Shown here: one piece after another, positions 2,417 to 41,516 of the stretch
Numbering within the stretch: the first letter of the stretch is position 1
Layout of the letters: the number at the start of each line of letters is the position of its first letter
Source: a virus
Reading direction: 5' to 3' (one strand)
DNA length: 64,000 nt
IMG/VR virus record: IMGVR_UViG_3300022921_001386
The notes under the pieces: generated by a model
What the model saw: the letters and a program-made list of their open reading frames with translations, nothing else
What the model was told of the DNA's origin: nothing
The model's database searches: none
Made by a program: the position numbers and the translations under genes

Positions 2417-2699
2417 AAACAAAGACGAGTATTGGGAAGAAATACTAAATGATATTGATATGGATTATATTCCATTAGAATATATCAATACTGTCATTGT
2501 TGGGTTTATTGATGGGAAAGAATGGGAAATTGATATCAAAAAAACCAAACAATCTACCGACGATGTTGATTCTATACTAGAAGAGTTTTTTAAAGAATAT
2601 GATGAAACAATCGATAAGGTTGATTTTAGATTAGATACTGAACGTTTAAAAAAAGACATTCAAAAAAGAACAACACGGTTTCTTAAAGTAAACAAATGA
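2406..2699 (+). CDS. Hypothetical acidic protein
   Basis: 97-aa ORF overlapping both neighbours. Confidence 0.7.
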   Translation: MTDKNKDEYWEEILNDIDMDYIPLEYINTVIVGFIDGKEWEIDIKKTKQSTDDVDSILEEFFKEYDETIDKVDFRLDTERLKKDIQKRTTRFLKVNK

Positions 2700-3250
2700 T
2701 AACTAAAATTGATTTAGATATCGATTATAACAAAATTATCGATACGTATAACAGTTTAAATATAGACCATTTACTCCAAAGTAACTTGAAACAAGTTGCT
2801 TTACAATGTAGAAAAGGCTGTCCATCAGACATACAATTGTATGAAAGTTGTGGCAGTCTTTTTTATGACTGGGTAGAATATGATAAAAATCCTAATGGAA
2901 AACTGCCATTAAGAAAAAAAATATACAAACAAGAAGACTTTACAGAGTTATGCAATATCTATAAAAACACCTATTTTAAAACTGTTGTAGAAAAAATTAA
3001 TCAACAATACAATATTACAAGAGGCAGGTTTATGCTAATGGAACATAAGACTTGTTTAACTTATCACACAGATCAATCTCCAAGAATACATATTCCGATC
3101 TATACAAACGAAAACTGTATGATGATCATTAACGATCAAGTTGTAAGACTTCCATTTGGCAATACATATCTTGTAAATACCAGATTGCAACATACTGCAA
3201 TAAATGCAAGTAAATATGCTCGTGTACATTTAGTTTTTTGTATTTCTTAA
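2696..3250 (+). CDS. Aspartyl/asparaginyl beta-hydroxylase-like 2OG-Fe(II) dioxygenase
   Basis: HTD ... RIHIPI.TN ... HTAIN ... RVHLV (HxD/H facial triad plus Arg). Confidence 0.8.
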   Translation: MITKIDLDIDYNKIIDTYNSLNIDHLLQSNLKQVALQCRKGCPSDIQLYESCGSLFYDWVEYDKNPNGKLPLRKKIYKQEDFTELCNIYKNTYFKTVVEKINQQYNITRGRFMLMEHKTCLTYHTDQSPRIHIPIYTNENCMMIINDQVVRLPFGNTYLVNTRLQHTAINASKYARVHLVFCIS

Positions 3251-3308: not shown

Positions 3309-4991
3309 ATGGCTTTAAAGCTAAGACGCGGAACAGAAGCAAACAGGACAAGTATTACGCCGGCAGAGGGCGAAATAATATATGTTACTGATACTAAAAA
3401 ACTATACGTTGGCGATGGAATTACACCCGGAGGTGTACTACAAGGTGGTAGTGGCGGAAGTTTAACTGGTATTACCGATAATGCTACAGCATCGGTGTTA
3501 ACACTCGGTGACGCAAACATTAGTATTGATGTTGATTTAAGTATTACTGGACAAGAAATTGTCGGTGATGGTGATATTAATATATCAGGAGATATTACGG
3601 CAAGCGGTGCAGGTACTGGCATAATAACCGCTAATAGTTTCATAGGTGATGTAACAGGTAATGTAACAGGTAATGTTGTTGGAACTGTAACAGGTACATT
3701 TGATGGTGATATGACTGGTAGTGTGTTCGGCGACGATAGCACATTACTAGTAGACGGTGTTAATAGTAGCATAAATGTAGAAAGATATAAAAGTACATCT
3801 AACGACTACAATTTTGGAAATGATAATAACGCTGTGTCATCTAGAATTGTAGTAAACTCAGTTAACAACCTCGGCGCTTTACAACTTCAAAGAGAAAGTG
3901 AATTAGATTTAACTGGAGATACTGCAATAAACTACGGTATGATACGATTTTCGAGAAATGATTCCAATGGATTATTGGAAACAGGGATAATCGTAGGTAG
4001 AGAAAATGCCTTGTTATTTTCATCATCATCAACTGGTTCTTTTGTAGATCCTACTGACTATTTTGCATTTAAGGAAAAAAAGTTTGGTATTGGTACAATT
4101 ACTCCAACTGAATCATTAGATGTAGTCGGTAATGCTAAAGCATCAGGCTTTATACAAACAGGATCATTTACAACGGAAGAACGTGACGCACTCACAGGTG
4201 CCGAAGGTATGATGATCTATAACACTACAACCAGTAGATATCAAATATTTGAAGCTGGCAACTGGTTAAACATGCGTGAAGTATCTAGTGGTGGCGGCGG
4301 CAGTACTGACAACTATTCACACTGGAATATCACAGCAGACGATAGTACATTAAGAGTTGTTAACGGTCAAGAAACTATTGGCATACTAGGCGGAACTAAT
4401 ATTACTACAACAAGTGATGCAGAAGGTAATATAACTATTACCAATACAGTAGTAGATTTTACTGATTTAGGTGTAACTCCAACAACACTAGCAGGATACG
4501 GCATTACAGATGCTATACAAGCAGGATCTGCATTTGATATAAAAGGTAGTGTGTTTGCTGACGATAGTAGTACTATGATAGACGGAGCGGCTGGAAAGAT
4601 TATCGGTCCTATCGAAACAACTAACGCAGTTATTTCAGGAACAATAGATAGCGCAGACTCAAGTGCAATCACATTTATTCCTGCTGTTGTTATGAACAGC
4701 GATGTTACTATAGAAAACAATCTTATAGTTACAAACAAGATTATTGCAGATACAATCGAAGTTGAAAATATTATTACCAATGCCAGCGGAACACCAGAGA
4801 TATCAAGTGACACTGATATTATTCTTGCAGCAGGAACAAGAGTTGAGGTATCGAGTAGTCCGTTTAAACTAGCAAGTTTTACTACTGTAGAACGTGATGC
4901 ACTAGCTGCCGAAAACGGCGATATGATTTACAATACAACTGACAACAAATTCCAAGGATATGAGAACGGTGCTTGGGCTAACTTAATCTAA
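3309..4991 (+). CDS. Tail fibre-like structural protein with Mtd_N/hyaluronidase-type N-terminus
   Basis: LRRGT...PAEGE.IYVTDTKKLYVGDG N-terminus; GDVTGNVTGNV repeats; two GSVF(G/A)DDS motifs; PTTLAGYGITDA fibre repeat; duplicated SFTT.ERDAL...G.MIYNTT module. Confidence 0.8.
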   Translation: MALKLRRGTEANRTSITPAEGEIIYVTDTKKLYVGDGITPGGVLQGGSGGSLTGITDNATASVLTLGDANISIDVDLSITGQEIVGDGDINISGDITASGAGTGIITANSFIGDVTGNVTGNVVGTVTGTFDGDMTGSVFGDDSTLLVDGVNSSINVERYKSTSNDYNFGNDNNAVSSRIVVNSVNNLGALQLQRESELDLTGDTAINYGMIRFSRNDSNGLLETGIIVGRENALLFSSSSTGSFVDPTDYFAFKEKKFGIGTITPTESLDVVGNAKASGFIQTGSFTTEERDALTGAEGMMIYNTTTSRYQIFEAGNWLNMREVSSGGGGSTDNYSHWNITADDSTLRVVNGQETIGILGGTNITTTSDAEGNITITNTVVDFTDLGVTPTTLAGYGITDAIQAGSAFDIKGSVFADDSSTMIDGAAGKIIGPIETTNAVISGTIDSADSSAITFIPAVVMNSDVTIENNLIVTNKIIADTIEVENIITNASGTPEISSDTDIILAAGTRVEVSSSPFKLASFTTVERDALAAENGDMIYNTTDNKFQGYENGAWANLI

Positions 4992-5002: not shown

Positions 5003-8000
5003 ATGAGTGAACAATATTATTCGTTAGGAACGAATACAGCAGAACAATATATCGAAATACACAATCAACTTTGCGAAGCAACTAATGGGATTGCAAATAT
5101 TCCAGATAGAGTATGCACATGCACAGATGAAAAAGAACATAGTCTTACAAGAGGAAGTTTTTCCTTAACAGATGCAGAAGCAACTGCACTAAAAGCAGAT
5201 CCACGTATAAAGTTTATCAATATCGATTACTCGAAATATCCTGAAACATATAAGGCGCCGCCGGACGAACTTTATGCAAGTGCTCCAAAAAACTTTAATA
5301 GATACAAAAATACAGTTAAAGTTTACAAAGAAATGGAAACTTCAAACACATTGCCCGGCACACCTGATTCAACAGATATCAATAGAACCAACTGGGGAAC
5401 ATTAAGAGGTAGCACACTAGTCGATCCTTGGATAGAAGGCGGTGACGCAGATAACGTTGTAAAAACAAGTAAAATACCTCAATGGGGAGACGGCAAGCAT
5501 GTTGATGTCATTGTAGCTGATGATGGCGCTGGATGGATCGGTCACCCTGAGTTCAATAGGGACACAGAAGGCGAAAAACCAAATGGATACATAGGTGGTA
5601 ATCTACTACCAGGTAACGGAAGTTGCGATGTACTAGATTTATGTTTAGATGCACCTTATTATTTAGATCCAGATTATTTTAATGCAGATCCAGATAATAG
5701 ACTTATAACACGTTGGGATGGTACTATTGTACCTGTAGAAAGTTTTGCAAGAGGTTGGTGGACAAGCACAGGCAATAGAAGTAGTGTATTCAATGCAAAG
5801 TTTCCTAGTGCAGGTATCGTATCGTTTATTACAAGCGGATACACAAGAGCATATTGCAACGGCACAAATACAATACCAAGCACTGTAGGACAGCACTGTA
5901 CGCCCTGTATGGCGCTTACATACGGTAGAACACAGGGCTGGGCATACAACGCTAACAAATGGGCACTTAACTTATATGGCACTAATAGTACTGACATCGA
6001 ACCAGGCTTTGATTTACAAAAAATATTCCACAATACAAAACCAGTAAATCCTGCATACGGCACACAAGACCCTACTGTAAGTTCAAACAGTTGGGGATAT
6101 CGTGCAAGCAAAGGTTCAAACCCAGGATGGTATCATTTTAGAGAAGATGCTCCTGTAACATATGCAGGAACAGGTGCAGAACCTACATTTATCTCACATA
6201 TGGGATCACAAGGAGATGGCGGTCGCTGGAAAAGTGAAATGAAAACCAACTCACTTACAACTGCATTAGACGAACTTATCGACAGCGGAGTAATATTTGT
6301 GTGTGCTGCTGGCAACAGTAACCAAAAACAAACCAACTGGGGGCATCCTGATTTTAACAACTATATCAGTGCCAACAGCGATGACACTATCGAAGAAAGC
6401 AGTTATTTTGAATTTAGCGTAGAAACCACTGGTACAACTAATAGACGTGGATTTCCGCAACAAGGTGGCAAACATGATTTAAGTGACGGTCTCGGTAGCG
6501 ATTTCTTTAAGCGTGAACTTACAGTTAATGGTGTACGTATTGTAGGAGCCGGTAGCGTTGGCGGGCAGGTAGCAGTGCCAGATGCATGGTTAGAAAAAGT
6601 TGGACGTATGTTTGAACTTTTCTTAGACAAAAATGCCGCAGGTATTAATGAAGCTGCACAAAGAACTGTTATTAAAACACTCAGTGGTGACGCAGGAACT
6701 TATCATGCAGCCCAAGGACCAACACTACAACGAGTAGCAAGAGGCGCCGGTGGAGACTATAGCACAAACTTCTTAACAGATGATGGTATTACTTTTTGGA
6801 ATCTATCACCACTATTTGATAGCCATGTAGCAAACGATATGGTTTGGTATTTGAATTCAACCGGCGATGGTTACGGAGACGGTGACAACGATGCACAAGA
6901 AGTTATTGAACACGTATTCCATACACTTCATATGCATGGCTTAGATGCTGTGTCATTAAAGTTGTATTCTTATATTAGTGCAGACTGGGCAAGTGGTCCA
7001 CTGTATGCGGCTATGGAAGAAGCATACGATGCAGGCATGTGGGATAGTTCGGGATACGGCGGAGACACTTGGAAGACTGATGGGGATGCATTTGAAGTAG
7101 CCGCAAAAGAATATTTGTTCCTACTGAACTTTGCAATGTTTGAATACACAGAATTATGGACCGGCGGAAGTCTTGCTCCTGAATGGAGTGATTTAATGCG
7201 TACTCAAGCAGGCATTCTAGCAAACAATCCGCTAGGATACGCACTACACAACACATACATTGCTCCAGTTATTAGCAAACCATCACTTGCTACTATTAGA
7301 AGCATATTCCAAGATGGAAACACACCAGCACAAGACGATCCAAGTCTGGCAGGTGTATCAGGATATGTTGTAAGTAACGGAAGTACGCAGGACCCTGAAT
7401 ACAACAACGGACCGCTTATTAGCAATGGTGAAGTTACATATAAAACAATCAACATTGGTGCATTGGATGATGATCATGCTGTTGGTGCAAAAGAACGCAA
7501 AGTTGGATATAGCGACAGAGGCAATGGTATAGACTTGTATGCCCCTGCAGATGGAATATTATCAGCAAATAAAAGCTATACTCCAGAAGGCAGGTACCCT
7601 GCTGTATATTCTGGATTTACTGCCAACAGCGGTAGTGGTTCAGGAGTACCCGAGGATACAGGATTTAGTGGTACAAGTGCAGCGTGTCCATGTGCAGCTG
7701 GATTTATTTCTACCTTAGTGCAGTTTAATAGAAACTGGACATATGCAGATATTAAAACATATCTTTCAAACATGCCAGGACAAACAACTGATAACTTTTA
7801 TTATGGATCTGAATCAACAACTGCAACCGAGGCTAACTGGACTGACTATCCTAGTATAGAAACTGACGAAGCACCAAAGGTTATATACCAAGATGCAACA
7901 CAGTTTACTCAAACAGTATTTCCAAAGCGTAAAAGTAAAATAAAATCTGGCTTGCGTACTAGCGGTATACAAATAAACTATATCCAAAAGTGGGATAGAG

Positions 8001-8005
8001 GTTGA
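5003..8005 (+). CDS. Subtilisin-family (S8) serine protease with inserted zincin-like domain
   Basis: VIVADDG (Asp), GQHCTPC (His), AAGN (oxyanion Asn), FSGTSAACP (Ser), GYSDRG..IDLYAP; N-terminal propeptide-like region. Confidence 0.85.
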   Translation: MSEQYYSLGTNTAEQYIEIHNQLCEATNGIANIPDRVCTCTDEKEHSLTRGSFSLTDAEATALKADPRIKFINIDYSKYPETYKAPPDELYASAPKNFNRYKNTVKVYKEMETSNTLPGTPDSTDINRTNWGTLRGSTLVDPWIEGGDADNVVKTSKIPQWGDGKHVDVIVADDGAGWIGHPEFNRDTEGEKPNGYIGGNLLPGNGSCDVLDLCLDAPYYLDPDYFNADPDNRLITRWDGTIVPVESFARGWWTSTGNRSSVFNAKFPSAGIVSFITSGYTRAYCNGTNTIPSTVGQHCTPCMALTYGRTQGWAYNANKWALNLYGTNSTDIEPGFDLQKIFHNTKPVNPAYGTQDPTVSSNSWGYRASKGSNPGWYHFREDAPVTYAGTGAEPTFISHMGSQGDGGRWKSEMKTNSLTTALDELIDSGVIFVCAAGNSNQKQTNWGHPDFNNYISANSDDTIEESSYFEFSVETTGTTNRRGFPQQGGKHDLSDGLGSDFFKRELTVNGVRIVGAGSVGGQVAVPDAWLEKVGRMFELFLDKNAAGINEAAQRTVIKTLSGDAGTYHAAQGPTLQRVARGAGGDYSTNFLTDDGITFWNLSPLFDSHVANDMVWYLNSTGDGYGDGDNDAQEVIEHVFHTLHMHGLDAVSLKLYSYISADWASGPLYAAMEEAYDAGMWDSSGYGGDTWKTDGDAFEVAAKEYLFLLNFAMFEYTELWTGGSLAPEWSDLMRTQAGILANNPLGYALHNTYIAPVISKPSLATIRSIFQDGNTPAQDDPSLAGVSGYVVSNGSTQDPEYNNGPLISNGEVTYKTINIGALDDDHAVGAKERKVGYSDRGNGIDLYAPADGILSANKSYTPEGRYPAVYSGFTANSGSGSGVPEDTGFSGTSAACPCAAGFISTLVQFNRNWTYADIKTYLSNMPGQTTDNFYYGSESTTATEANWTDYPSIETDEAPKVIYQDATQFTQTVFPKRKSKIKSGLRTSGIQINYIQKWDRG

Positions 8006-8029: not shown

Positions 8030-8290
8030 TTATTTCTTAGCTTCTTTTTCAGCTTCAATCACTGCTTGTAATTCCTTGAACAACTCTTCAGCCATTGACA
8101 CTTGACGTAATGCAAATTTATGCGGCAACGCTGGGAAAATGAATGGAAAGAATGCATGTATAAAACCAGTTAATGGAATTAGTAATGAGTGTGATGACAA
8201 CTTAATAGCATACCACATATGCAAAAAATATCCAGACCTTACGTCTTTAAGATGCTCAAAATTTATAATGCTATTTTTAAAAAGGCTCAT
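8030..8290 (-). CDS. Small DUF6356-like protein
   Basis: HL...GYF.H....IHAFFPF pattern; paralog of next ORF. Confidence 0.65.
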   Translation of the reverse strand: MSLFKNSIINFEHLKDVRSGYFLHMWYAIKLSSHSLLIPLTGFIHAFFPFIFPALPHKFALRQVSMAEELFKELQAVIEAEKEAKK

Positions 8291-8496
8291 TTATGATGCT
8301 CAAATGTTGTGTCTACTAAACTTGCCAATTTCTTTGCTGCATTCATAGATGATGCTTCAAGCACAAATGGAAAGATAGCATGTATTGTACTTGTTATAAA
8401 TACTGCCAATGACCAAAATACCATGTGTGATCCAATTTTAAGATGTCCAAAATATCCAGTGTCAGCCTTTTCGCAGTGTGCAGTTAATGTAGTCAT
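8287..8496 (-). CDS. Small DUF6356-like protein
   Basis: HC...GYFGH....IHAIFPF pattern; AAGGAG RBS. Confidence 0.65.
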   Translation of the reverse strand: MTTLTAHCEKADTGYFGHLKIGSHMVFWSLAVFITSTIHAIFPFVLEASSMNAAKKLASLVDTTFEHHK

Positions 8497-8566: not shown

Positions 8567-9265
8567 TTATTCAAATCCCCATTTTTTTTCTCGACACCAC
8601 CAACATAATCCACATTCCCTTTTTTCATAAGTAGCAGTAGGATCTACGCACGATTTTGTTAACTTATATAATGATTCCATTAAGTTTTCTTGTTTATAAA
8701 TCTTTGCTATGTCGCGCTTGTTTGTGTTTATCCACGGTTTATACAGAACATTTCCATATATAGTTTTGGATAGTCTTGGCTCAATACAAACATTTCTATA
8801 TTGATCTGCGCCGTTTTCTAACCCGTGCAGGTTCATTTCTTCATTTGGTGGGTTAGCTGTTACTGCATTAACAAATGTTAATATATTATTTTGTTCTCTA
8901 ACTTTCTTAAGAGCCGCCATTAGCTGAAAATATTTTGATAATCCTTCTATTGACGAAAAAGTAAAGTTATCAAATTGATCCTTAGCTTTTTTAAACCAAA
9001 AAGTATCATTAGTGTCAAATCTATATGTTTCGTGCTTTCCTATGTTAGCATCAGGAAATCTTTTACGCATAAATTTTAAAATATCATAAGCACAAAGTAT
9101 GTCTGCAGGATTACATGCATCATCACCTGAAAACGGAACAATATAAGTTTTTGGAAAGTGTTTGCAAATTAAATAAAATAATATTGCAGAATCTAATCCG
9201 CCTGATAACATTAATATAACTTGCTTAGGTGGTCCATCTGGAAAATCATCTTTTGTAAAAATCAT
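8567..9265 (-). CDS. QueC-like PP-loop ATP pyrophosphatase (copy 1)
   Basis: LSGGLDS PP-loop; TKSC...CGLCWWC Zn site. Confidence 0.8.
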   Translation of the reverse strand: MIFTKDDFPDGPPKQVILMLSGGLDSAILFYLICKHFPKTYIVPFSGDDACNPADILCAYDILKFMRKRFPDANIGKHETYRFDTNDTFWFKKAKDQFDNFTFSSIEGLSKYFQLMAALKKVREQNNILTFVNAVTANPPNEEMNLHGLENGADQYRNVCIEPRLSKTIYGNVLYKPWINTNKRDIAKIYKQENLMESLYKLTKSCVDPTATYEKRECGLCWWCREKKWGFE

Positions 9266-9266
9266 T

Positions 9267-9944
9267 TTAATATCCTATTAAAGATGGTACAATAATATTT
9301 CTATCTAACACTGTAATTTTCATCCAGTTAAATCCGTCTGTTAGTCCATCTTCTATAGATAACTGAAATCTAGAATATTTTTTTATAGACTTTTTAAGTT
9401 CGACCGTATCAAATACAGACCATAGCATGTTATCGTTATTTGTAATATACGAAACTTTATTGCTGCGTATTTTTTTCATTTGTTTTTCTGAAACATCTAT
9501 TGTTCTGTGCGTATTATGAAGTATATCAAATATTTTTTGATTAGATGGATCGATATATGTAAAATATACATATGTAGATATGGTACATAGGTTTTCTACA
9601 CAATAAAGTAGTTCTTCTAAGTTATGATGAGTAAATACACTGTTAGCAAACGAAATATCAAATATTCCAATATTTGGAAATGTTTCTGTTTTACTACCAG
9701 CAGGATTATATATAGAATGGTATCTGTTCCAATAAACTACATTTGCAGCCGGGTGTTCATTTAAAAGAGCATTCAATGAATCCTTACTTACGTCCATACA
9801 AGTATAGTTTTTTTCATGGATTTTGCCGTTGCTATAACTAATTAGATTACCTCGGTTTCCTCCAAAGTCTAATATTTTTTTATTTTTGTAATCAGTTACA
9901 AACTGATCAAATATATTAAACACATTAAGTTTTTTAAATATCAT
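9267..9944 (-). CDS. Class I SAM-dependent methyltransferase
   Basis: ILDFGGNRG motif I, CMDVS motif II, FD...ANSVFTH. Confidence 0.8.
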   Translation of the reverse strand: MIFKKLNVFNIFDQFVTDYKNKKILDFGGNRGNLISYSNGKIHEKNYTCMDVSKDSLNALLNEHPAANVVYWNRYHSIYNPAGSKTETFPNIGIFDISFANSVFTHHNLEELLYCVENLCTISTYVYFTYIDPSNQKIFDILHNTHRTIDVSEKQMKKIRSNKVSYITNNDNMLWSVFDTVELKKSIKKYSRFQLSIEDGLTDGFNWMKITVLDRNIIVPSLIGY

Positions 9945-10519
9945 GGTAATATATCTGCTACTAAATGAATACGATCAATATTACTAGCATTTAACGCAGT
10001 ATGATTTCCTTTATCTGTATGAGCAAATGTCCATTGATCTTTTGGTAAATGGTATACTTCATCTTCGATAATCATAAGACAAGCCTCGTTGGTTTGTATT
10101 GGATAATGTATACGAGGAATTGGATCTATATGCCAATTCATACAAGTATACGGTTTTGATTTTAATAGACGCACTCTACCGACAGTGTATTTTGTTTCTA
10201 ATACACAATAGGCGTGATTAAACAATGTGCCTTTAAAAACATCACACAGCTCCCAGTCGTATACTGACTTTGGAGACATTGGTATTCTAACATCTCCTTC
10301 TGGTGTAAGTCTAATAAAGAAATCAGACTTGCCTTTATCTGCAAAGTAACCAGCCCCAAAGCTATAATCATCTGTATAGCCTGGTGCGGCATTTAAACAT
10401 ATCTGTTGAGCGCTGTGTGGATTAGAAGGTTTGAACCATTCTAAATTTAAGTTGTCTAATTCTTCTAACAGACCTTCGACTATCGGTAAGTTTATTGTAT
10501 CATAATGAATCAATGCCAA
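9941..10519 (-). CDS. Aspartyl/asparaginyl beta-hydroxylase-like 2OG-Fe(II) dioxygenase
   Basis: WHID..PRIHYPIQTN ... HTALN ... RIHLV; paralog of 2696-3250. Confidence 0.8.
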   Translation of the reverse strand: MALIHYDTINLPIVEGLLEELDNLNLEWFKPSNPHSAQQICLNAAPGYTDDYSFGAGYFADKGKSDFFIRLTPEGDVRIPMSPKSVYDWELCDVFKGTLFNHAYCVLETKYTVGRVRLLKSKPYTCMNWHIDPIPRIHYPIQTNEACLMIIEDEVYHLPKDQWTFAHTDKGNHTALNASNIDRIHLVADILP

Positions 10520-12575
10520 ATAAATCTCCTTCTTTGCCGTTGATTGCTTCTAATACTTCGTCATAACTTTTATCAAAAATTGCTAGTTTAAAAAGTACTC
10601 TTTCATTATATGTTTGTACACTGTGCTCTTCTTGTACATTAAGCAAAGCACCTTCATAATAGACATCGATATCTTCGTTCCAGGATATAGGACTATTCCA
10701 TGTTATAGGACCGTCGCCATCTAGTATTATATTTAAAGCAGTTATTGTTCCATGATCACGATGAGGAGATAGGTAACTATCTCCGTCTTGTATATAATAC
10801 CTAGGAACAGCTTTGCAACCAATAATAGAACTAACATGATTTGCTATACTATTTGCTACGTTACAATTAGACATATCGTCTTGTCTAATCACACGAAGAT
10901 GATCAATGCTTTTTGTTTCGTGCTCGTTGGAAGCAGTAAATACTTTAGCAAGTGACTTGTTTTCATAAAACTCTTTTCTTAATTTAGATTTTAAATCTTG
11001 GTTAACCGATAAGTTTTTCATATATCTTATATTAGGTTCGGGCTTCTTTATTTCTAAAAGGTTTTCAACTTTTGAATAATAAGATTTTTCTAAAAAATGC
11101 CGTGCTTTACGACGAGGCTCGGCACTTGTAAATAATTCAGTAAATGTCATTTTTCTAAGTTCTTCGAATGAATATCCAAGACACTGATAAAACATTAAAA
11201 AGAAGGTAGAAACTTTAATATCATCGATAAAATCTTTTGTAAGTACTTTTACGTATTCAACAGCCTCGTCACTATCCCAATCTTTAGTACGCCATTTGTT
11301 TTGCTTTTCATCATCAGTATATACTGTATAGCCAAACTTTTCTGGATTTTTTGAAAGCTCAGATGCTGTGCCGAGCTCTAATGGGCTAAAAGAAAAAGCA
11401 TCAAACAGATCTTTGTTTTTAATAACATCCTTAGTCCAAACATCCATTGTTTCTTTACTATCATAAGGCAACCCAGCAATAAAGCTACCGTAAACACTTA
11501 ACGATCCATCAAATACTTCTCGAGATTTTCTGATTGTTTCAAAAATTGTTGCGCTAGGACAACCCTTTCCGATTGTCTTGGCTGACTCATAATTCAACGA
11601 TTCAACACCGAGAAACCAAGAACACACATTGATTTTTTTAAGTAGTTCTAGTTGCTCTGGCCATTTTGCTACAAGATCAATACGTATAAATGCCGAAAAC
11701 TGTAGTTGTTCTGGTAGATTAATTTCTTCTATGGCATCTGCAATAGCTTGTAGCTTAACAGTCTGCTCATTAAATGTATCATCGATAATTATATACTTTG
11801 TAGTGCCATATAACTCATAGTTTTGTTTTAATTCGTGTTTGATACATTCTTTATCTCTTAAAAAAGATTGATCGCCTTTTTTCTTTCCTATCAATGGATA
11901 AGCACAAAACTTACATTTAAAAATGCATCCACGGCCAAATTCGATACCCATAGCTTCTTCCGCACTCCAAAAGTCCTCTGGAATATAGTTTACTTTTGTA
12001 TTTCTAAAATCAAATAACGCTCCTTTTTGATCATAATCAAATATATAGGGAGTAGTTCCGAGATTGGCATTATAGTTAAGATCTGTACCATTTTTTAAGT
12101 GATTAGTAATATTTAATGCAGTATGTTCGCCCATTCCAACTACATAATAATCTATTTCATTTTTAACTTCTTCGGCTCGATGATATGACATACTGCCGCC
12201 GTATACAGTTTTTACACCTTTGGTATATCGAATATAATCAGTCATTTTTCTAATATCTTCGTCTTCAGTAGGCCAGCGCCAAAGAATATTTTTTTTATTA
12301 GTATCTCGTGTATGTCGTTTGGTATATACTTCGTTACTCTTTCTCATAAACAACGAAGAACTAAATCCAACCCATAGTGTGTTATCACCGATTAACTTGT
12401 CAAGAATTTGTTTAATCATTCCGTTTTTAATCCAATGTGAAAAGTTATTTAATACAAAAACACTATATCCTTCATTGCGTAAAGCAGATGCAATTTTATA
12501 GCCGCCGATTCCCCGTGCTACATTAAATACCGGGTCGCTGCCTTCAGTCATGATTATAACATCATATGTTTTCAT
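10500..12575 (-). CDS. Cobalamin-binding-type radical SAM enzyme with fused C-terminal 2OG-Fe(II) oxygenase-like domain
   Basis: N-terminal VGFS/YGG/G.GE B12-domain pattern; GRGCIFKCKFC, DDTFN, GVES, FIAGLP; C-terminal PHRD...HSV...RVLFK. Confidence 0.8.
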   Translation of the reverse strand: MKTYDVIIMTEGSDPVFNVARGIGGYKIASALRNEGYSVFVLNNFSHWIKNGMIKQILDKLIGDNTLWVGFSSSLFMRKSNEVYTKRHTRDTNKKNILWRWPTEDEDIRKMTDYIRYTKGVKTVYGGSMSYHRAEEVKNEIDYYVVGMGEHTALNITNHLKNGTDLNYNANLGTTPYIFDYDQKGALFDFRNTKVNYIPEDFWSAEEAMGIEFGRGCIFKCKFCAYPLIGKKKGDQSFLRDKECIKHELKQNYELYGTTKYIIIDDTFNEQTVKLQAIADAIEEINLPEQLQFSAFIRIDLVAKWPEQLELLKKINVCSWFLGVESLNYESAKTIGKGCPSATIFETIRKSREVFDGSLSVYGSFIAGLPYDSKETMDVWTKDVIKNKDLFDAFSFSPLELGTASELSKNPEKFGYTVYTDDEKQNKWRTKDWDSDEAVEYVKVLTKDFIDDIKVSTFFLMFYQCLGYSFEELRKMTFTELFTSAEPRRKARHFLEKSYYSKVENLLEIKKPEPNIRYMKNLSVNQDLKSKLRKEFYENKSLAKVFTASNEHETKSIDHLRVIRQDDMSNCNVANSIANHVSSIIGCKAVPRYYIQDGDSYLSPHRDHGTITALNIILDGDGPITWNSPISWNEDIDVYYEGALLNVQEEHSVQTYNERVLFKLAIFDKSYDEVLEAINGKEGDLFGIDSL

Positions 12576-12576
12576 A

Positions 12577-13344
12577 TTATCCTTTCCTTGGATTATTAAA
12601 GTCTACTGGAGTGCCGTTTCTTCCAATGTAGAATAATATTCCGTCTTGTTCTATTACTTGATCTTGTGTATTAAACCAGTTGTCCCCATATACAGATATA
12701 TCACCTTTTACTAATAATCTATTTTCTTTGTCTATCTTATAATCACAGTTAAATATATTACCGAGTACAGTAGAGTTAGCAGGCGTAATATCTTTAAGTG
12801 CATACACTTCTTCTATGTTATTAAATATATGCATAATGGCATTTACTCCAACTTCGGTCATTCCCCATATACATATTACTCGAGCACCTCGATTGATAAA
12901 ACCTTCAATAATATCATACGTGACGGGCTCAGATCCTACTAAAAATGTTTTGCCGGTTAAGTCAAGTGTTTTAAATCCCTTTGTTAACATAACACCCTTT
13001 GCTTGCTTTGGGGTTAAATGTGTATGAGTATATCTATCTGCTACTTTAGTATATTTATATAGATTAAATTTATCAAAGTTAACTGTTGCACCAGCTATCA
13101 ATCCTGGAATAGATTGGGCAAACAATCCTCCAGCACGCTCTAAACTTAAACAAGTGTATATAGAACTATGCACATTAATATCCTGAACTTGGATTGCACA
13201 TTTGGCATCTGCTACTATTTTACTTGGGGGCTGATATATCTCTTTTGGAACTCCGGATGTACCCGATGTTTTAATAGTTATGCCATTTACAATAATATGT
13301 TCTAATTTATCAATCAAAGTAATGAAATCCAAACTCTTGGTCAA
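12577..13344 (-). CDS. Truncated/minimal AMP-binding (ANL superfamily) adenylate-forming enzyme; start uncertain
   Basis: TSGTSGVPK (A3), WGMTE (A5), WFNTQD (A7), YIGR (A8); no C-terminal subdomain. Confidence 0.75.
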   Translation of the reverse strand: MTKSLDFITLIDKLEHIIVNGITIKTSGTSGVPKEIYQPPSKIVADAKCAIQVQDINVHSSIYTCLSLERAGGLFAQSIPGLIAGATVNFDKFNLYKYTKVADRYTHTHLTPKQAKGVMLTKGFKTLDLTGKTFLVGSEPVTYDIIEGFINRGARVICIWGMTEVGVNAIMHIFNNIEEVYALKDITPANSTVLGNIFNCDYKIDKENRLLVKGDISVYGDNWFNTQDQVIEQDGILFYIGRNGTPVDFNNPRKG

Positions 13345-14497
13345 CGTATTTTAAAACGTGATGACCCATGAACCGTTCAGTAATAGTTTTAAACATTTCG
13401 TCGTTTTGCCCTTTTACATATCGTTTCAATACATCAGTCTTTTCTATACGTTCAGCAGATGTTTTCTTTGCCCAGTCCCAAAATTCGTTTTTGTATATAG
13501 AGCCTCCATGATAGATTAAGTTAATTAAATCTTCTACTGCACGATAGTTTAAAATACATAGCTCGTTTGCTCGAGAGCCGTTAATTTCGCCTCGTATATA
13601 ATCAGAAAGTATTTGACAGTTTTTAACAGCCATATACAACGAATTTGCACTCATTGGTTCAAAGAACACTGCACAGTTTCCATTTTTTAATAAACGTTGG
13701 TCAACTGTCTTCTTACAATAATATGGTTTTAAATCAAATGTACGGAAGTTTTTTGTATCTGCATCTGTTGCATCTGTGATACGAATAAGTTCCTTTTCAG
13801 CTTCTTCACGTGTACAAAACTCACTGTTGTACAGGAAGCCATGAGATGTCCTATGTTGTAATGGAATAACAAACATCCATCCATACTTATGAGCAACATG
13901 ACGTGTGAATCCAAAATCAGATGGTGTTGGATCATCATATACCAAAGCAGAGTTTAGAACAAGGTTACATTCATTGTAATCAGTAAAATCTGTCGGTCTA
14001 CCTCGACAATCGATAATATAATCAAATATGTGCAGTTTTCCGTCTACGGTTAGTTCGCCGCCTCTTGATTCGTTAGTATAATCAGTAAAACTTTGCGATA
14101 CTCTTTCTACGTTACCGTGTAATACAGTATAACTATTATATAATTTTTTTAAGCGTTCCATGCCCATTTTAACAAAATCTTTTGCATCAAAATGGATAGC
14201 ATGATATCCTGATTGAAAAGGAAAAATAATATCTTTCTCTCTCCAATCAATGTAATGTGTGCCGTACTTAGTTGTGCTGTTGAGTTCTTTTGCTTCTGTT
14301 GCAAATATGAAATCAAATGCCTGACCAATAGCAAAGGTTACTTCTGACGTTGTACTCTCACCTACTCCGAGGATAGGCTTACTTGGATCATATACATGGG
14401 TAAGCTCTAACTCAATTTCACGATTTTTAAAATCTTTAAGTAAACAGCCTGCAGTTAATACCCCTGCACTTCCAGCACCTAATATAGCAATCTTCAT
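13310..14497 (-). CDS. Flavin-dependent tryptophan-halogenase-family protein
   Basis: GAGSAG, GVGEST, TTKYG, IDCRG, GWMFVIPL, FFEPMSAN. Confidence 0.8.
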   Translation of the reverse strand: MKIAILGAGSAGVLTAGCLLKDFKNREIELELTHVYDPSKPILGVGESTTSEVTFAIGQAFDFIFATEAKELNSTTKYGTHYIDWREKDIIFPFQSGYHAIHFDAKDFVKMGMERLKKLYNSYTVLHGNVERVSQSFTDYTNESRGGELTVDGKLHIFDYIIDCRGRPTDFTDYNECNLVLNSALVYDDPTPSDFGFTRHVAHKYGWMFVIPLQHRTSHGFLYNSEFCTREEAEKELIRITDATDADTKNFRTFDLKPYYCKKTVDQRLLKNGNCAVFFEPMSANSLYMAVKNCQILSDYIRGEINGSRANELCILNYRAVEDLINLIYHGGSIYKNEFWDWAKKTSAERIEKTDVLKRYVKGQNDEMFKTITERFMGHHVLKYVDQEFGFHYFD

Positions 14498-15013
14498 TTA
14501 AATCTCCGGGTTTATCTTACAATATTCTTTTATATTTAGTTTCCATATATTTTGTTCGGTATCAAAAACCTTTTGACACCCTAGATGTTCTACTATTTGT
14601 TTTTTTTCAAGTATGTGATAAAGTTTGTTTAACTTTAACATTTTGCCGCTGTGGTCAGTTTCGGTATTAGTTGTTATGTATATAGGCTTATTGCTGTACA
14701 TATTAATTACTATAGGCAAGTGATAGCGAAACATCCAACAATTCATATGATTCTTACTTAATCCGCCAGGAATTGAATAAAGTTGACATCCTCTAAATAA
14801 TGCTCGTATACCGTTGAGGAATGGATGTACTCCGCTTATGCCAACAATTTTAGTATTATGAAAAGTGGCGAACCAGTTTCCGCCAATACGTAATGTGTTA
14901 TTAAATTTCATAGACTCTAGGCTATTGTTATTATTGTAATTCATCCTATCACATTCATTAATGAATTCTAATAACTGCAAGGTAGGTTTAGATATAATCC
15001 TTGTTTCTATCAC
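14498..15013 (-). CDS. GNAT-like acyltransferase
   Basis: KIVGISGVH strand, PIYITTN; paralog of 40929-41516. Confidence 0.55.
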   Translation of the reverse strand: MIETRIISKPTLQLLEFINECDRMNYNNNNSLESMKFNNTLRIGGNWFATFHNTKIVGISGVHPFLNGIRALFRGCQLYSIPGGLSKNHMNCWMFRYHLPIVINMYSNKPIYITTNTETDHSGKMLKLNKLYHILEKKQIVEHLGCQKVFDTEQNIWKLNIKEYCKINPEI

Positions 15014-16257
15014 GAAAATACCATTTCTAAATCTTTGTAAACAGTTGTACTTCCAAACATAGCAGGCAATAGCTCAGGCTGTCTTGTAATCTCAAACGTA
15101 TCAAATCTATCTAATAATGCATTTGTAATAATTTCTAAAAAATGCTTAACAAGAAAATCACCTGTACAATGATGCGGGCCATATGCAAGTGTTACCGGCA
15201 ACGGTTCGTTATCTCTTTCAAGTCTAAATACTAACGGATCTTTATAATATTTTGGATCTCGATTGGCACCATATGTATATAACAAAATGCGGCCGCCTCC
15301 ATCAAACTTATAACCATGAAATACTGTATCGTCAACAATATCTCGTACGCCGCCCTTTAAAGGTGCTAATCGTAAACTTTCTCTAGCAAATGCAGAAACT
15401 AAAGACCTATCTTCTTTTATACGTTTAACAATATCTGGATATTTACAAAAGTTCATTAAAATGTTCTGATATAAACTTAACGAAAATGTAGGAATAACCA
15501 CTGTCCATAAAGACTGAATAAACATATACGCCATTAGTTTAGGATTATCGTTATATTCAGATTGTTTGTCGTTGAGGTTTTTAGTCATATTAATCATAGT
15601 ATCGTAATCTTTATCATTGTTATGATAATATTCTATTGCTTCGTTAACTATACGAGAGAACATACTATAAAACTCAGTAGTCTCTGATACAGGCTTATCG
15701 TAATCAAAGTCCGGATTAAAGTTTGAAAATACATTTCCAGGACGCATCCACTTATGAAATCCGTCTTTTACATAATCTTCAGTAACATCCAATGCATCCC
15801 ACGGAAACTCAATTGATTGAACTTGGGTATCTGTTACTGTTTTGCCTATGACATCGTATGCTTTAAATGGAACGCCCTTTTTAATCGAGTCAAGATCTTT
15901 ATATAAGTTATCTGTAAAGATTTTTGTAAAATCGCCTGCTCGACGTTTAATCCAATCTAAACTATGTTTTTTAGCAAGGTGGTGATGCGGACCTTCACGA
16001 AGTGTCAACGCATATCCTGCTCTCCAAACACCTCCAAGAGGAGTAGGATCAAATGGTGCTGGAGATGTTTTTGCAAGACTGAATCTATCATTCATTTTAG
16101 ATGCCTCTTTAAGGCGATCCATCGAAAAGATAATCCAATGTTTATATACTGGGTGCCAAAAGAAGCCGCGTTCTTCGTTTTTAAAACAAAATGTTATGTG
16201 TTCGTCCATTTTGTATAAGAAATCAGGATTAACAATTTCAAAATCAATTTTCCTCAT
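15010..16257 (-). CDS. Cytochrome P450
   Basis: ESLR (ExxR), ANRDP..Y.DP..F..ER, AYGPHHCTG heme-thiolate loop; 415 aa. Confidence 0.9.
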   Translation of the reverse strand: MRKIDFEIVNPDFLYKMDEHITFCFKNEERGFFWHPVYKHWIIFSMDRLKEASKMNDRFSLAKTSPAPFDPTPLGGVWRAGYALTLREGPHHHLAKKHSLDWIKRRAGDFTKIFTDNLYKDLDSIKKGVPFKAYDVIGKTVTDTQVQSIEFPWDALDVTEDYVKDGFHKWMRPGNVFSNFNPDFDYDKPVSETTEFYSMFSRIVNEAIEYYHNNDKDYDTMINMTKNLNDKQSEYNDNPKLMAYMFIQSLWTVVIPTFSLSLYQNILMNFCKYPDIVKRIKEDRSLVSAFARESLRLAPLKGGVRDIVDDTVFHGYKFDGGGRILLYTYGANRDPKYYKDPLVFRLERDNEPLPVTLAYGPHHCTGDFLVKHFLEIITNALLDRFDTFEITRQPELLPAMFGSTTVYKDLEMVFS

Positions 16258-38384: not shown

Positions 38385-39443
38385 GTGCGGATTTTTATTA
38401 ACGGCGAACAAATATCTCAACAATGGATCAGCGACTATACGTTAAGTAACACTGTAGATTGCTACAGTGACAAGCCAGACTGGGAACAAAATGTATTAAA
38501 ACTGTTGCACAACTGGCATTCACAAAGTGGGTATAGCTATGGACATAGAGGTGATAAGTTTGTTAATCTCAGTACCAGTGGCACCACTGGATTTCCACAA
38601 CAAATTGGACACACTAAAGAAACTATAGAACAAGTTGTAAATGCAAATATCAAAACATTAGGGTTAGATAAAAATAGTAAAATATTAAGTTACTATTCAC
38701 CTCGTGGTATTGCGTTTAGTGTGCTAAGTGTGTATCTTGCATTGAAACTAGATTGCGAACTATACATTGAAACATTCAAAGGCATTGACTATATAAATCG
38801 TGTACACGAAATACGTCCAACACACACATTGTTATTGCCTAATGTTTGGAAAACATTATACACACACGACAAATGGAAAACACTAGATTATAGTAGTTTA
38901 CAAACTGTTATTACAGGTAGTGACTTTACACCAATAGGAATGTTAGACGAACTACGTGAACACAATCCAGGTAAAGTATACAATGTATATGGCAGTACTG
39001 AAGTGCCTCCTATAGTATTGTACAGTGAAGAAGAAAACACATACACAATAGACAGTATTGTTCCTGGAGCAGAAGTAGATATTGTAAATGGACAGATTGC
39101 TTGTAAATGGAGCAGTCAGCCCGATATATGGATTAGTGGAGATTGTGTAGACGGCGATAGAAATTGTTTTACATTACACGGGCGTAAGCACAACATGTTC
39201 AAACAAAATACTGTTAGAGTATATCCTGAACAAATCGAAAAAGCAGCAGTTGCAGCAGGAGCAGAACTTGCACTGTGTCAACAAGTAAGCAATCAATGTG
39301 TGCTACACTATACAGGTAATATAAAAGATATGAAGTTATTCAACGACACTTACAAATATATTCCAAGATTTAGACTACGGGCAGTAGATCATATTGCAGT
39401 AGACAACAATCTTAAAAAGATTATAAGGACACAAACATTTTGA
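38385..39443 (+). CDS. Short AMP-binding (ANL superfamily) adenylate-forming enzyme
   Basis: STSGTTGFP (A3), VYGSTE (A5), SGD (A7), LHGRK..MFK....VYPEQIE (A8), KKIIR (A10-like). Confidence 0.8.
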   Translation: MRIFINGEQISQQWISDYTLSNTVDCYSDKPDWEQNVLKLLHNWHSQSGYSYGHRGDKFVNLSTSGTTGFPQQIGHTKETIEQVVNANIKTLGLDKNSKILSYYSPRGIAFSVLSVYLALKLDCELYIETFKGIDYINRVHEIRPTHTLLLPNVWKTLYTHDKWKTLDYSSLQTVITGSDFTPIGMLDELREHNPGKVYNVYGSTEVPPIVLYSEEENTYTIDSIVPGAEVDIVNGQIACKWSSQPDIWISGDCVDGDRNCFTLHGRKHNMFKQNTVRVYPEQIEKAAVAAGAELALCQQVSNQCVLHYTGNIKDMKLFNDTYKYIPRFRLRAVDHIAVDNNLKKIIRTQTF

Positions 39444-40936
39444 GAATAATAGTTTTAGGTGCCGGAACAGCTGGTGCGATTGCTGCAGGTATCATAAAAA
39501 AACGCAGACCTGATATTGAAGTTTTACAAATTCACAGTGAACAAGTTGGTATTATCGGAGTCGGCGAAAGTGTTACTCCTTATTTAAATCATGCATTCCA
39601 CGAACTTGGTATGGTTGAAAAAGATTGGATGACTGCAACTGGTAGTATGTACAAACTAGGAAACAAGTTTGAAGGATGGACAGACGAAGATCATTACTTT
39701 GCATTTACATACAACAAGCCTATTGATAAACTTATTAATAATAAACCTATAGACTGGAATGATATCAAAAGTATAAACGAAACTGATATTAGACTTACTG
39801 ACGTATGGTGTGATTTGTACAATCAAGGAATGGTAAACAACTTTAGTGCAAGTTTTAATGATTTGCACAATTCATTAGTCGACAATACATTTGATTTTAA
39901 GTTACTTGATCGCACTTGTCTCAACTACAGTTATCATATTAATGCAGAAAAACTTGCACCTTACATAAGAAAAAATATTAATAATAAACTTGGTGTAATA
40001 GAAATAGAAGGTAAAGTTGTCAAAGTTAATACCAACGACAACGGTGTACACAGTGTTGAGATGGAAAACGGAGAAGTATATACGTCCGATTACTGGTTTG
40101 ATTGCAGTGGATTTAATAGATTACTAATCAACGAACTTGACGATAGCTTTCATACATACGACTATTGTAAAGCAAATAGTGCAGTAGTAATGCCAATAGA
40201 ATATACTTCGCAAGACCAACTAACAAATCATACTAGAACTATTTGGTTAGAACAAGGATGGCAGTTTAAAATAGGATTAACCGAACGTATCGGAACTGGT
40301 ATTATTTACAGTGATGAATATTTTAGCGATGAAGAAATAAAACAACTATTGTTAGAAAAAGAAAATCATAAAAACATCCGGCCACCAAAAATACTAAAAT
40401 GGACGCCTGGTAGAATGGTCAATCCTGCTATAGATAATGTGTTTAGTATAGGAATGGCAGCAGGATTCTGCGAGCCAATGGAAGCAAATGCGTTATACAT
40501 TACAATGGCAACTATTAAAAGAGCATTACACAGTATTAACCAAGACGAAAATAGAAATACATTTAACAAAGTTATCAATCATACACTAGACGATACTGCA
40601 TTTTTTATTGCCGCACATTATACACTTTGTGAAAAAGGTAATAACGCATACTGGAATGATATGCGTGAAATAGGTATAAAACAAAATCACAAGCAACTAT
40701 TACTGGAAAAGTACAACGATGTAAAAAATAATATGGAAAGTGCTGTAAATCATTATACAATGTATCCAGATTACATGTGGATGGAACTAGCATCGGCATG
40801 GTGTAAAGACATTAGTACTTGGAGTAAAAATACAGATCCTAGACTACAGCAGCAAGTTTTAGAATATTTTAGAAAATCAAAAAGTATCACAACCAATCAA
40901 TATCCAGAAGAAATGAGGAAGTTTCATAATGTATAG
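39440..40936 (+). CDS. Flavin-dependent tryptophan-halogenase-family protein
   Basis: GAGTAG, IGVGES, YKLGNKFEGW, FDCSGF, GWQFKIGL.ERIGTG, GFCEPMEAN. Confidence 0.85.
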   Translation: MRIIVLGAGTAGAIAAGIIKKRRPDIEVLQIHSEQVGIIGVGESVTPYLNHAFHELGMVEKDWMTATGSMYKLGNKFEGWTDEDHYFAFTYNKPIDKLINNKPIDWNDIKSINETDIRLTDVWCDLYNQGMVNNFSASFNDLHNSLVDNTFDFKLLDRTCLNYSYHINAEKLAPYIRKNINNKLGVIEIEGKVVKVNTNDNGVHSVEMENGEVYTSDYWFDCSGFNRLLINELDDSFHTYDYCKANSAVVMPIEYTSQDQLTNHTRTIWLEQGWQFKIGLTERIGTGIIYSDEYFSDEEIKQLLLEKENHKNIRPPKILKWTPGRMVNPAIDNVFSIGMAAGFCEPMEANALYITMATIKRALHSINQDENRNTFNKVINHTLDDTAFFIAAHYTLCEKGNNAYWNDMREIGIKQNHKQLLLEKYNDVKNNMESAVNHYTMYPDYMWMELASAWCKDISTWSKNTDPRLQQQVLEYFRKSKSITTNQYPEEMRKFHNV

Positions 40937-41516
40937 ATTTGAAATATACAACGGCACACAAGATTTAACACAATGGTATAAGGATGCCGAAGAAAAAGGT
41001 TACTATAATAATAGCAACAAAGAGATGCTTGTTGACTGGGTTGAAAAACATGAAGACGCAACACTGTTTTTGTTGTACTACAATGAACATATTGTAGGCA
41101 ATAGTGTTGTTCATAGTTTAAAAGAGCTGGGAATACTTGGTAAAAATGCATATCGCATTGGCGCAAGAACTTGTTTGATTAGAGACAGAATTGACGGTGG
41201 CAGAGTTTATGCTCCAGCTAATGGCCCAGTAAATCATCATACTGTGCAAATGTTACTTCCTATATGTATCGAACATGTAGGAAGAGACAAGCCTGTGTAT
41301 ATTAGTACACACGAAGGCGGAGTGGGAAGTCAAGACCGTGTACACAAAGTGTGGACATATTTTACAAACAAACTAGGCATCACCGGTGACAGCATTGATT
41401 TAGAATACAAAGGTGCATTCCAAACTTTTAGACGGATTGATGTTGATAGGATGTATGATTTACTAAAAGAAGCAAGATGGCCCGAGGCAGAGCAAGCTAT
41501 TCCACTGTTTAGTTAA
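40929..41516 (+). CDS. GNAT-like acyltransferase
   Basis: HIVGNSVVH strand, RIGART, PVYISTH; paralog of 14498-15013. Confidence 0.55.
   Translation: MYRFEIYNGTQDLTQWYKDAEEKGYYNNSNKEMLVDWVEKHEDATLFLLYYNEHIVGNSVVHSLKELGILGKNAYRIGARTCLIRDRIDGGRVYAPANGPVNHHTVQMLLPICIEHVGRDKPVYISTHEGGVGSQDRVHKVWTYFTNKLGITGDSIDLEYKGAFQTFRRIDVDRMYDLLKEARWPEAEQAIPLFS

Follow-up and report, generated by a model that had tools for sequence, protein, structure and literature searches.

A mini adenylate-forming enzyme and a predicted GNAT-fold protein, with an optional halogenase, in a probable tailoring gene island of a marine phage

Three neighbouring genes of an uncultured marine tailed phage form part, we propose, of a tailoring operon whose core would activate an acyl group and attach it to an acceptor. 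The genes lie in a 64,000-nucleotide (nt) stretch of DNA (IMG/VR record IMGVR_UViG_3300022921_001386), hereafter the window, and encode SM1, a small protein of a new, almost purely viral family with a predicted GNAT fold; HAL1, a short protein of the flavin-dependent halogenase family; and AMP1, a lidless mini adenylate-forming (ANL) enzyme. A reading made earlier from the letters and their open reading frames (ORFs) alone (the sequence-only reading) had described a conserved unit of three that modifies an acid, activates it as an adenylate or coenzyme A (CoA) ester and transfers it to an amine. The families it named are right and the genes do co-occur in other phage genomes. The steady unit, however, is the pair of mini-ligase and GNAT-fold protein, often with a DUF6356 protein, and the halogenase is an optional plug-in. 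The explanation as a whole, an island tailoring operon with an activate-and-attach core and an optional halogenase, is one that we hold with middling confidence.

SM1 (14498..15013; 171 amino acids (aa); assigned by its fold model), HAL1 (13310..14497; 395 aa; PF04820, 4.5e-31) and AMP1 (12577..13344; 255 aa; PF00501, 5.3e-11) are transcribed in this order from the minus strand. As the sequence-only reading had it, they are coupled, and ORFs and Pfam agree in placing them between a cytochrome P450 directly upstream of SM1 (15010..16257, minus strand; PF00067, 1e-12) and a 691-aa B12-binding radical S-adenosylmethionine (SAM) enzyme directly downstream of AMP1 (10500..12575, minus strand; Radical_SAM, 9e-15; its B12-binding domain match, 2.9e-5, is under the Pfam cut-off). 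The P450 stop and the SM1 start share 4 nt, HAL1 directly adjoins SM1 and shares 35 nt with AMP1, and AMP1 in turn runs into the start of the radical-SAM gene.

A second copy lies on the plus strand in the opposite order: AMP2 (38385..39443), a 352-aa short ANL enzyme with about 95 extra C-terminal residues (PF00501, 4.6e-19); HAL2 (39440..40936), a 498-aa flavin-dependent halogenase (PF04820, 3.5e-71); and SM2 (40929..41516), a 195-aa paralogue of SM1 with no Pfam match. Pairwise BLASTP gives 23% identity between the ligases (E 7e-6), 27% between the halogenases (3e-10) and 23% between the small proteins (9e-5), and the copy-1 family profiles match AMP2 at 1.1e-19 and SM2 at 9e-12 (E-values of searches against single sequences). 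These searches confirm the earlier claim of a recurrence at 38.4-41.5 kb with reversed order and low similarity (23-27%). Small-halogenase-ligase in one copy stands against ligase-halogenase-small in the other, and we read the two as old, distant paralogues that reflect neither a recent duplication nor an inversion. Searches of phage records by tblastn returned only four weak matches for AMP2 and none for SM2. Next to copy 2 stands a gene for a 482-aa protein (36897-38345, plus strand) that has no family match except a weak PHROG match in its last 40 residues. Of the 28 SM2-centred loci, 26 have it beside the copy-2 cassette, 21 of them upstream and on the same strand and five (L039-L043) on the opposite strand; in L019 and L022 a contig end cuts the locus.

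Evidence for the steady pair comes from viral contigs sampled from the SM1, SM2, ligase and halogenase sides; the samples overlap and contain near-duplicates, and the counts are of loci, not of independent events. From the ligase side, 199 viral stretches were found and the best 80, with 59 distinct ligase sequences, were examined. An SM gene lies within 4 kb of the ligase in 63 of these 80 loci (47 of the 59 distinct ligases), with SM before ligase in 43 and ligase before SM in 20. Where no halogenase intervenes, 30 of 49 SM/ligase pairs overlap or have a gap of no more than 4 nt. Fourteen of the 80 loci have a halogenase between the two. Seen from SM2, 21 of 28 loci have an adjacent ligase and one more breaks off at the contig end, a halogenase stands between ligase and SM2 in only six, and SM2 occurs without either in five. 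From the SM1 side the picture is of a fixed operon: the P450, the ligase and the B12 radical-SAM gene are found in 12 of 12 loci, a cupin hydroxylase in 11 and a methyltransferase in 10 (the misses fall mostly at contig ends), and the halogenase in 10, the ligase directly following the SM gene in the remaining two (L005 and L006). In the relatives of copy 1 the triad is embedded in a larger fixed operon, running from P450 through GNAT-fold protein, halogenase, ligase, B12 radical-SAM enzyme and cupin hydroxylase to methyltransferase.

The sequence-only reading had also proposed a search for co-occurrence of the triad in viral metagenomes, and this search found it: both partners stand within 3 kb of the halogenase at 17 of 68 halogenase-centred loci. 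The halogenase takes four arrangements with the pair, namely SM-HAL-AMP, AMP-HAL-SM, AMP-SM-HAL (L195) and SM-HAL-DUF6356-AMP (L198), and the halogenases of the last two are 25-28% identical to HAL1 and HAL2. Four gene orders with such diverged halogenases argue that the link between halogenase and pair is functional. Repeated recruitment of different halogenases to one and the same pair, or retention of an old triad through much rearrangement, could account for this; both histories point to a shared substrate stream. Cassette content varies even among close relatives: L004 and L029 come from one contig whose copy 1 is 92-98% identical to that of the window and whose copy 2 has no halogenase.

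Many of the gaps between SM and ligase genes hold an ORF of 68-108 aa that belongs to Pfam DUF6356. It occurs in 41 of the 80 ligase-centred loci, usually immediately upstream of the ligase, and beside the ligase in nine of the 17 loci that have no SM gene (lower bounds, given flanks of 4 kb). The window has two DUF6356 genes in tandem at the 3' end of the copy-1 gene run (8287-8496, 69 aa, and 8030-8290, 86 aa; both on the minus strand, with PF19883 matches of 6.6e-7 and 6.5e-8, above the cut-off). Each of the two proteins has one hydrophobic stretch and conserved histidines.

The pair is also joined in one polypeptide. P0313 (578 aa) is a fusion of a short ANL part (PF00501, 9.4e-16; 22% identity to AMP1, E 2e-5) with an SM domain at residues 400-571. 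It is a single sequence from one 23.4-kb contig, possibly an assembly or frame artefact, and it was not found in viral or metagenome contigs. Because the two genes keep company in both orders and are fused once, ligase and GNAT-fold protein are best read as two enzymes working on one intermediate; activation of a carboxylate and then transfer of the acyl group would be the simplest chemistry. Other SM proteins carry a different N-terminal domain, of 245 aa in P0210, P0211, L045 (6001-7254), L074 and L087 and of 121 aa in P0220, with a weak sulfotransferase lead (ESM Atlas scores 0.90-0.91); in L045 a mini-ligase gene directly precedes the fusion gene. A TauD/TfdA-family dioxygenase occupies the usual place of the ligase in L036 (4929-6008) and follows SM and halogenase in L044 (1690-2610). 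In P0291 (613 aa), a signal-peptide-like N-terminus and two laminin-G/ConA-like lectin domains are followed, at the end of the protein, by the C-terminal half of an SM domain; this too is known from one sequence only, perhaps an artefact of assembly.

AMP1 is small by family norm. Its PF00501 match spans profile positions 170-378 of 384 only. All but two short fragments among its 109 close homologues are of 223-276 aa, and the ligases of the 80 viral loci are of 223-283 aa; with nearly all homologues short, the mini form is the norm of the family and not a truncation in this genome. The AlphaFold2 (AF2) model, with a predicted local distance difference test score (pLDDT) of 93.7, superposes on the large N-terminal domain of ANL enzymes. 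In VIA structural alignment, 240 of 255 residues align with IdnL7 (Z 21.5), feruloyl-CoA synthetase follows at Z 20.9, DltA and many adenylation domains of non-ribosomal peptide synthetases (NRPS) reach Z 19-20, and 99 chains reach Z>=8. Against PDB sequences AMP1 as a single sequence found no match; its family profile did match, aligning from residue 151 of feruloyl-CoA synthetase onwards.

The nucleotide-binding motifs of AMP1 read TSGTSGVPK, WGMTE, WFNTQD and GR, which we take to be A3 (T/SGTxGxPK), A5 (GxTE), A7 (xTxD) and the A8 hinge (GR). In the family alignment S27, G28 and G31 of A3, W160, G161, M162 and E164 of A5, W223, T226 and D228 of A7 and R242 of A8 are invariant, and K34 of A3 is kept in at least 90% of members. 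Missing are the first N-terminal subdomain (about the first 170 residues, with motifs A1-A2) and, as the protein ends 13 residues past the A8 arginine, the whole C-terminal lid with its A10 lysine. By model and motifs, then, AMP1 is a natural mini ANL enzyme that keeps the predicted ATP-binding motifs without first subdomain or lid. Where ANL enzymes have been characterised, adenylation needs this lysine, and the lid also shapes the thioester step. The absence of a lid makes a CoA ester from AMP1 alone, one option of the earlier reading, doubtful.

Longer relatives of AMP1 were not found at E<=1e-10, which is weak evidence. In a sample of 401 genomes of the class to which the metagenome-assembled genome (MAG) of L044 belongs, the AMP1 profile matched in 33, always in open frames of 480-1639 aa; no mini form turned up in those searched. 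The last 95 or so residues of AMP2 and the extra C-terminus of P0313 may form a small lid with a lysine, in our own reading of these regions; that of AMP2 aligned to no PDB chain. AMP2 also matches the DVU_1553 short-ligase family (NF045666) weakly, at 3.9e-6. Prediction of an AMP1+SM1 complex gave an ipSAE of 0.00 in both runs, made without controls, which speaks neither for nor against binding.

The sequence-only reading had called the small proteins GNATs, and here sequence searches are silent but the structure model agrees. SM1 matches nothing in Pfam, NCBIfam or PHROG; 40 family members against Pfam gave noise only (Acetyltransf_9 in three, best 0.14; Acetyltransf_1 in one, 0.15), and the family profile found no PDB sequence at E<=10. 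The AF2 model built from 40 sequences is confident (pLDDT 91.2; predicted template modelling score, pTM, 0.86). Foldseek matched it to 59 PDB entries at E<=1e-3 (best 8.9e-6), and those among the matches listed are all GNAT/acetyltransferases or acyl-CoA N-acyltransferases. VIA alignment placed 1yre on top (Z 12.4, 151 residues aligned), with 148 chains at Z>=8, and all of the 50 entries listed are annotated as GNAT-superfamily proteins or acetyltransferases. The model thus confirms a predicted GNAT fold. NcdE (9nij), FeeM (2g0b), Rv1347c (1yk3), FdhC (5kta) and PseH (4ri1) all score Z 10-11, and since the matches tie, acyl donor and acceptor are not readable from the fold. The usual pyrophosphate-binding loop of GNATs has the pattern Q/RxxGxG/A before helix 3. 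SM1 reads IPGGLS here (family consensus RPxGLS, with G84 and L85 kept in at least 90% of members), in a 15-residue loop of lower model confidence that resembles the usual one only loosely.

The SM family comprises 98 homologues of about 170 aa from marine metagenomes, and an exhaustive profile search brings it to 212 clusters at 50% identity. A collection of 185,579 prokaryotic genomes held a single locus, on a 2.8-kb MAG contig, and the language-model neighbours of SM1 in the ESM Atlas are all viral, one cluster being auto-named N-acetyltransferase. The family is almost exclusively viral.

HAL1 scores 108.6 bits against PF04820 (cut-off 21) and matches phrog_2928 at 2.5e-66, Thal at 4.7e-13 and VirX1 at 5e-8; HAL2 matches Th-Hal at 5.6e-47 and VirX1 at 9.4e-36. 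Such matches, with the motifs below, clearly mark HAL1 as a member of the flavin-dependent halogenase family. Residues 7-12, GAGSAG, fit the flavin-binding motif GxGxxG, which is kept in 17 of 17 aligned sequences; the motif GVGES is conserved as well. Lys77, likewise kept in 17 of 17, aligns with the catalytic lysine of Thal (K79 in PrnA, Thal and VirX1). The catalytic glutamate of tryptophan halogenases, E346 in PrnA and E358 in Thal, is replaced by Ser283 (FFEPMS) in every HAL1 orthologue and retained in HAL2 (FCEPME). This serine bears on the tryptophan-halogenase subtype and does not decide membership of the halogenase family; the missing glutamate points to an activated (phenol-, pyrrole- or indole-like) or large substrate. 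At the WxWxIP site HAL1 reads GWMFVIP, with phenylalanine for the second tryptophan, and three aligned cyanophage halogenases share the change; variants of this site occur in active halogenases, according to a review (PMC8407142).

The tryptophan halogenases of solved structure that HAL1 matches are longer than it by about 100-150 residues. Its closest relatives in cultured phages are proteins named 'tryptophan halogenase' in S-SSM5, S-MS29 and S-SSM7 (33-36% identity), and it is nearer to such cyanophage halogenases (34.5%, E 5e-64) than to HAL2 (E 3e-10). The halogenase lineages of the cassettes are as far from each other as from bacterial enzymes. The three cyanophage halogenase loci that were inspected have unrelated neighbours, with no ligase or GNAT-fold gene alongside.

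All three genes are under purifying selection, as is the neighbouring P450 gene: against the closest relative, L004, the ratio of nonsynonymous to synonymous substitution rates (dN/dS) is 0.114 for SM1, 0.116 for HAL1 and 0.087 for AMP1, and 0.09-0.12 over the four. Thirteen salt-marsh DNA runs contain the window nearly word for word and are possibly its source. A further marine DNA run shares 94% of the words sampled from the window, and its contigs match at 95-100%, with about 1-2% differences. In the independent marine run X14 the P450 gene carries, at 16063-16197, three pairs of one-base deletions and insertions that look like short compensated frame changes in a strain variant. Three metatranscriptome libraries have contigs that are 99-100% identical to the operon and span its SM1/HAL1, HAL1/AMP1 and AMP1/radical-SAM junctions; such libraries may contain DNA, so we do not count these contigs as proof of transcription.

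The wider setting is a minus-strand run at 8.0-36.9 kb, dense with radical-SAM and other tailoring genes; glycosyltransferase-like genes, too, occur in the island. Downstream of the B12 radical-SAM gene follow, on the same strand, an Asp/Asn beta-hydroxylase-like cupin (9941..10519; PF05118, 1.5e-5), a SAM-dependent methyltransferase-like protein (9267..9944; PF08242, 2.3e-6, under the Pfam cut-off) and a QueC-like PP-loop protein (8567..9265; PF06508, 2.2e-8). A second Asp/Asn beta-hydroxylase-like gene (2696-3250, plus strand; PF05118, 2.1e-9) lies outside the operon on the opposite strand. The 691-aa radical-SAM protein looks fused: L048, L053, L055-L057 and L096 have ORFs of about 505 aa and about 167 aa in its place, with the cupin hydroxylase gene between the pieces, sometimes inverted, and its C-terminal part shows, by eye, an HxD...H pattern.

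Tail-fibre-type proteins are encoded in the window as well: an Mtd_N protein (3309-4991, plus strand; 1.4e-12), a tail collar/Gp10_C protein (52012-53994) and an FG-GAP protein of 3060 aa. Mtd_N is the N-terminal domain found in the major tropism determinant of Bordetella phage, and the Mtd_N gene is followed by one for a 1000-aa protein with a subtilase domain (5003-8005, plus strand; PF00082, 3.6e-12). The T4 late-promoter motif is not enriched in the window (8 observed, 12.4 expected), and sigma-70-like and terminator-like sites occur there at chance level; one site matching at 11 of 12 positions falls in the sole gap (17403-17375). No DNA nearly identical to the window was found in the phage collection, and the nearest virus record, G001, has no SM1 match.

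In light of these findings, what might the cassette do? We suggest that it is part of a tailoring operon in a hypervariable, tail-fibre-adjacent island of a marine T4-like phage. AMP1 would bind ATP and a carboxylic acid and form an acyl-adenylate, and SM1 would hand the acyl group on to an amine or hydroxyl on the product or target of the island, whatever that may be. As AMP1 has no lid, transfer directly from the adenylate, or with help from a partner such as DUF6356, seems likelier than transfer via a CoA ester made by AMP1 alone. HAL1 would draw reduced flavin from the host and place a halogen on an electron-rich ring, either of the acid or of the product. Halogenation of an acid, its activation and its transfer to an amine would be one course of these steps. 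The families, folds, motifs, synteny, domain fusion and purifying selection are directly supported; the reactions and their order, the substrate and the acceptor we infer. Glycosyltransferase-like genes in the island favour a sugar as acceptor, and the set of P450, B12 radical-SAM enzyme and hydroxylase would suit a peptide or virion protein. The acceptor may also be a free metabolite, as was suggested for another cyanophage cluster, one that has an amino-acid halogenase (PMC7824862, from the part available).

Several observations weigh against this proposal. No substrate-forming enzyme, carrier protein or acceptor was identified; 17 of the 80 mini-ligase loci have no SM gene within 4 kb; the lidless AMP1 and all its close relatives may be weak, need a partner or act otherwise; and SM1, with no sequence-level match to any GNAT family, has a putative CoA-binding loop that departs from the usual pattern. 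The halogenase is missing from two of the 12 SM1-centred, 22 of the 28 SM2-centred and 66 of the 80 ligase-centred loci, and 51 of the 68 halogenase-centred loci lack both partners within 3 kb (one of these, L203, being a 126-base stub), with halogenases 23-37% identical to HAL1 that may act on something else. These absences, together with the unrelated neighbours of the cultured cyanophage halogenases, are what one would expect if the halogenase were a passenger, a mobile cassette gene in a permissive spot with a role independent of the pair. Diverged halogenases stand beside the pair in four orders, in three of them between the partners, which is unlikely for unrelated insertions, and we consider a mere passenger improbable.

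The missing lid is the main obstacle to a simple mechanism: either a partner supplies its function or the mechanism is a reduced one. It also leaves room for AMP1 not to adenylate at all, serving as a scaffold for nucleotide or acyl-AMP or in another ATP-dependent step while SM1 draws on acyl-CoA or acetyl-CoA of the host. All 109 close homologues and the ligases of all 80 viral loci lack a C-terminal lid, the first N-terminal subdomain is gone too, and DUF6356 beside SM-less ligases hints at a role independent of SM. Family-invariant nucleotide-binding motifs and the strong constraint on AMP1 speak the other way, as do the putative small lids of AMP2 and P0313, and a non-adenylating AMP1 strikes us as distinctly improbable. 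Acetyltransferases of the Pat/AcuA type regulate acetyl-CoA synthetase by lysine acylation, and SM1 might in principle acylate the catalytic lysine of AMP1 in the same way. Only the adjacency of GNAT-fold and ANL genes suggests this, and the target lysine sits in the very lid that AMP1 lacks; we reject such regulation for copy 1 and give it hardly any credence in general.

A protein or peptide acceptor would leave the core mechanism as we propose it and change its target. The operon would then resemble a set for ribosomally synthesised and post-translationally modified peptides (RiPPs), decorating a tail fibre or virion protein by halogenation, hydroxylation, C-methylation and cross-linking, with the ligase/GNAT pair N-acylating a lysine or the N-terminus. 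P450, B12 radical-SAM enzyme and Asp/Asn beta-hydroxylase-like cupin are neighbours typical of peptide tailoring, the island lies amid tail-fibre-type genes (Mtd_N, tail collar), and GNATs that N-acylate RiPPs are known (PMC9811515, as far as consulted). The NCBIfam matches to RiPP families (ApyO, 1.6e-4; ApyD, 7e-6; RiPP C-methyltransferase, 2.6e-4) are weak, every one of them far under its cut-off. No precursor peptide gene or recognition element was seen in the window, whose packed genes leave no room for one, and the glycosyltransferase-like genes fit a sugar target equally. On balance we think a protein acceptor unlikely.

A bolder version of the proposed activate-and-attach core would make AMP1, SM1 and DUF6356 a virus-specific, CoA-independent acyl-transfer machine in which SM1 or DUF6356 replaces the lid, and which decorates receptor-binding structures or a glycan with an unusual aryl or acyl group, halogenated in some lineages, and so tunes host range. 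In its full form this is a speculation to which we give little weight; if true, no virus before would have been seen to make a halogenated decoration for its own particle. Short of that, our findings have several implications. Phage halogenases have one characterised member, VirX1, and the fixed neighbours described here name a likely pathway, so that three to seven genes would suffice to test what marine phages halogenate. In the mini-ligase family an ANL enzyme has persisted under selection although it has no lid, which conflicts with the textbook two-domain mechanism and asks for a biochemical account. With the SM family, the predicted members of the GNAT fold gain a large branch that is almost purely viral. 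The cassette itself sits in an island that probably governs host recognition in abundant marine phages.

How does the cassette compare with known systems? Every part belongs to a known superfamily and the logic of ligase plus acyltransferase is familiar; the system is not categorically new. Neither the triad nor the mini-ligase and SM families are described in the literature that our searches covered, which leaves out subscription journals. One close parallel is the pairing of ligases with GNAT N-acyltransferases in natural-product and glycan pathways, where an ANL fold is likewise coupled to a GNAT fold, as it is here and, in P0313, within one chain. In the phage pair, by contrast, SM1 falls in no described GNAT sequence family, belongs to a family found almost only in viruses and may or may not use CoA, and the ligase is reduced to a 255-aa core that has neither lid nor first subdomain. 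Reduced ligases do have precedents. The structural-genomics protein 4gs5 from Dyadobacter, of unknown function, shares the N-terminal truncation with AMP1 (model residues 1-246 align to its residues 15-249, Z 19.4), and so do ligases of the DVU_1553 family (NF045666); 4gs5 (358 aa) and AMP2 (352 aa) extend about 100 residues past the hinge, whereas the AMP1 family ends there.

The PltF/PltL/PltA proteins of pyoluteorin biosynthesis are reportedly a set of ligase, carrier and halogenase, in which, as proposed here, an ANL enzyme and a flavin-dependent halogenase serve one acyl group; PltF and PigI are among the fold matches of AMP1. The phage cassette differs in having no carrier protein and no ligase lid for docking, and in having a GNAT-fold protein as the downstream partner. 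With the cyanophage halogenases (S-SSM5, S-MS29, S-SSM7, S-RIM14) and VirX1, HAL1 shares the phage variant WxFxIP and the putative catalytic lysine. Unlike the inspected cyanophage genes, which have neither partner, HAL1 stands between ligase and GNAT-fold gene; it is also shorter than VirX1 (395 against 531 aa) and has serine at the position of the glutamate. VirX1 itself, from cyanophage Syn10, is according to the portion consulted a viral halogenase of proven activity; its active site is open and it prefers iodide (PMC8407142).

Lastly, the island as a whole resembles the host recognition cluster of pelagimyophages and cyanomyophages (Zaragoza-Solas et al. 2020, PMC7029224; compared through its main text). 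In a term search of that text, halogenase, P450, AMP-binding and acetyltransferase did not occur. Island and cluster alike are large, non-syntenic and set among tail-fibre genes, and each has glycosyltransferases and radical-SAM cassettes that differ between close relatives; by this analogy the window island appears to match the host recognition cluster in its hypervariability and its tail-fibre setting.

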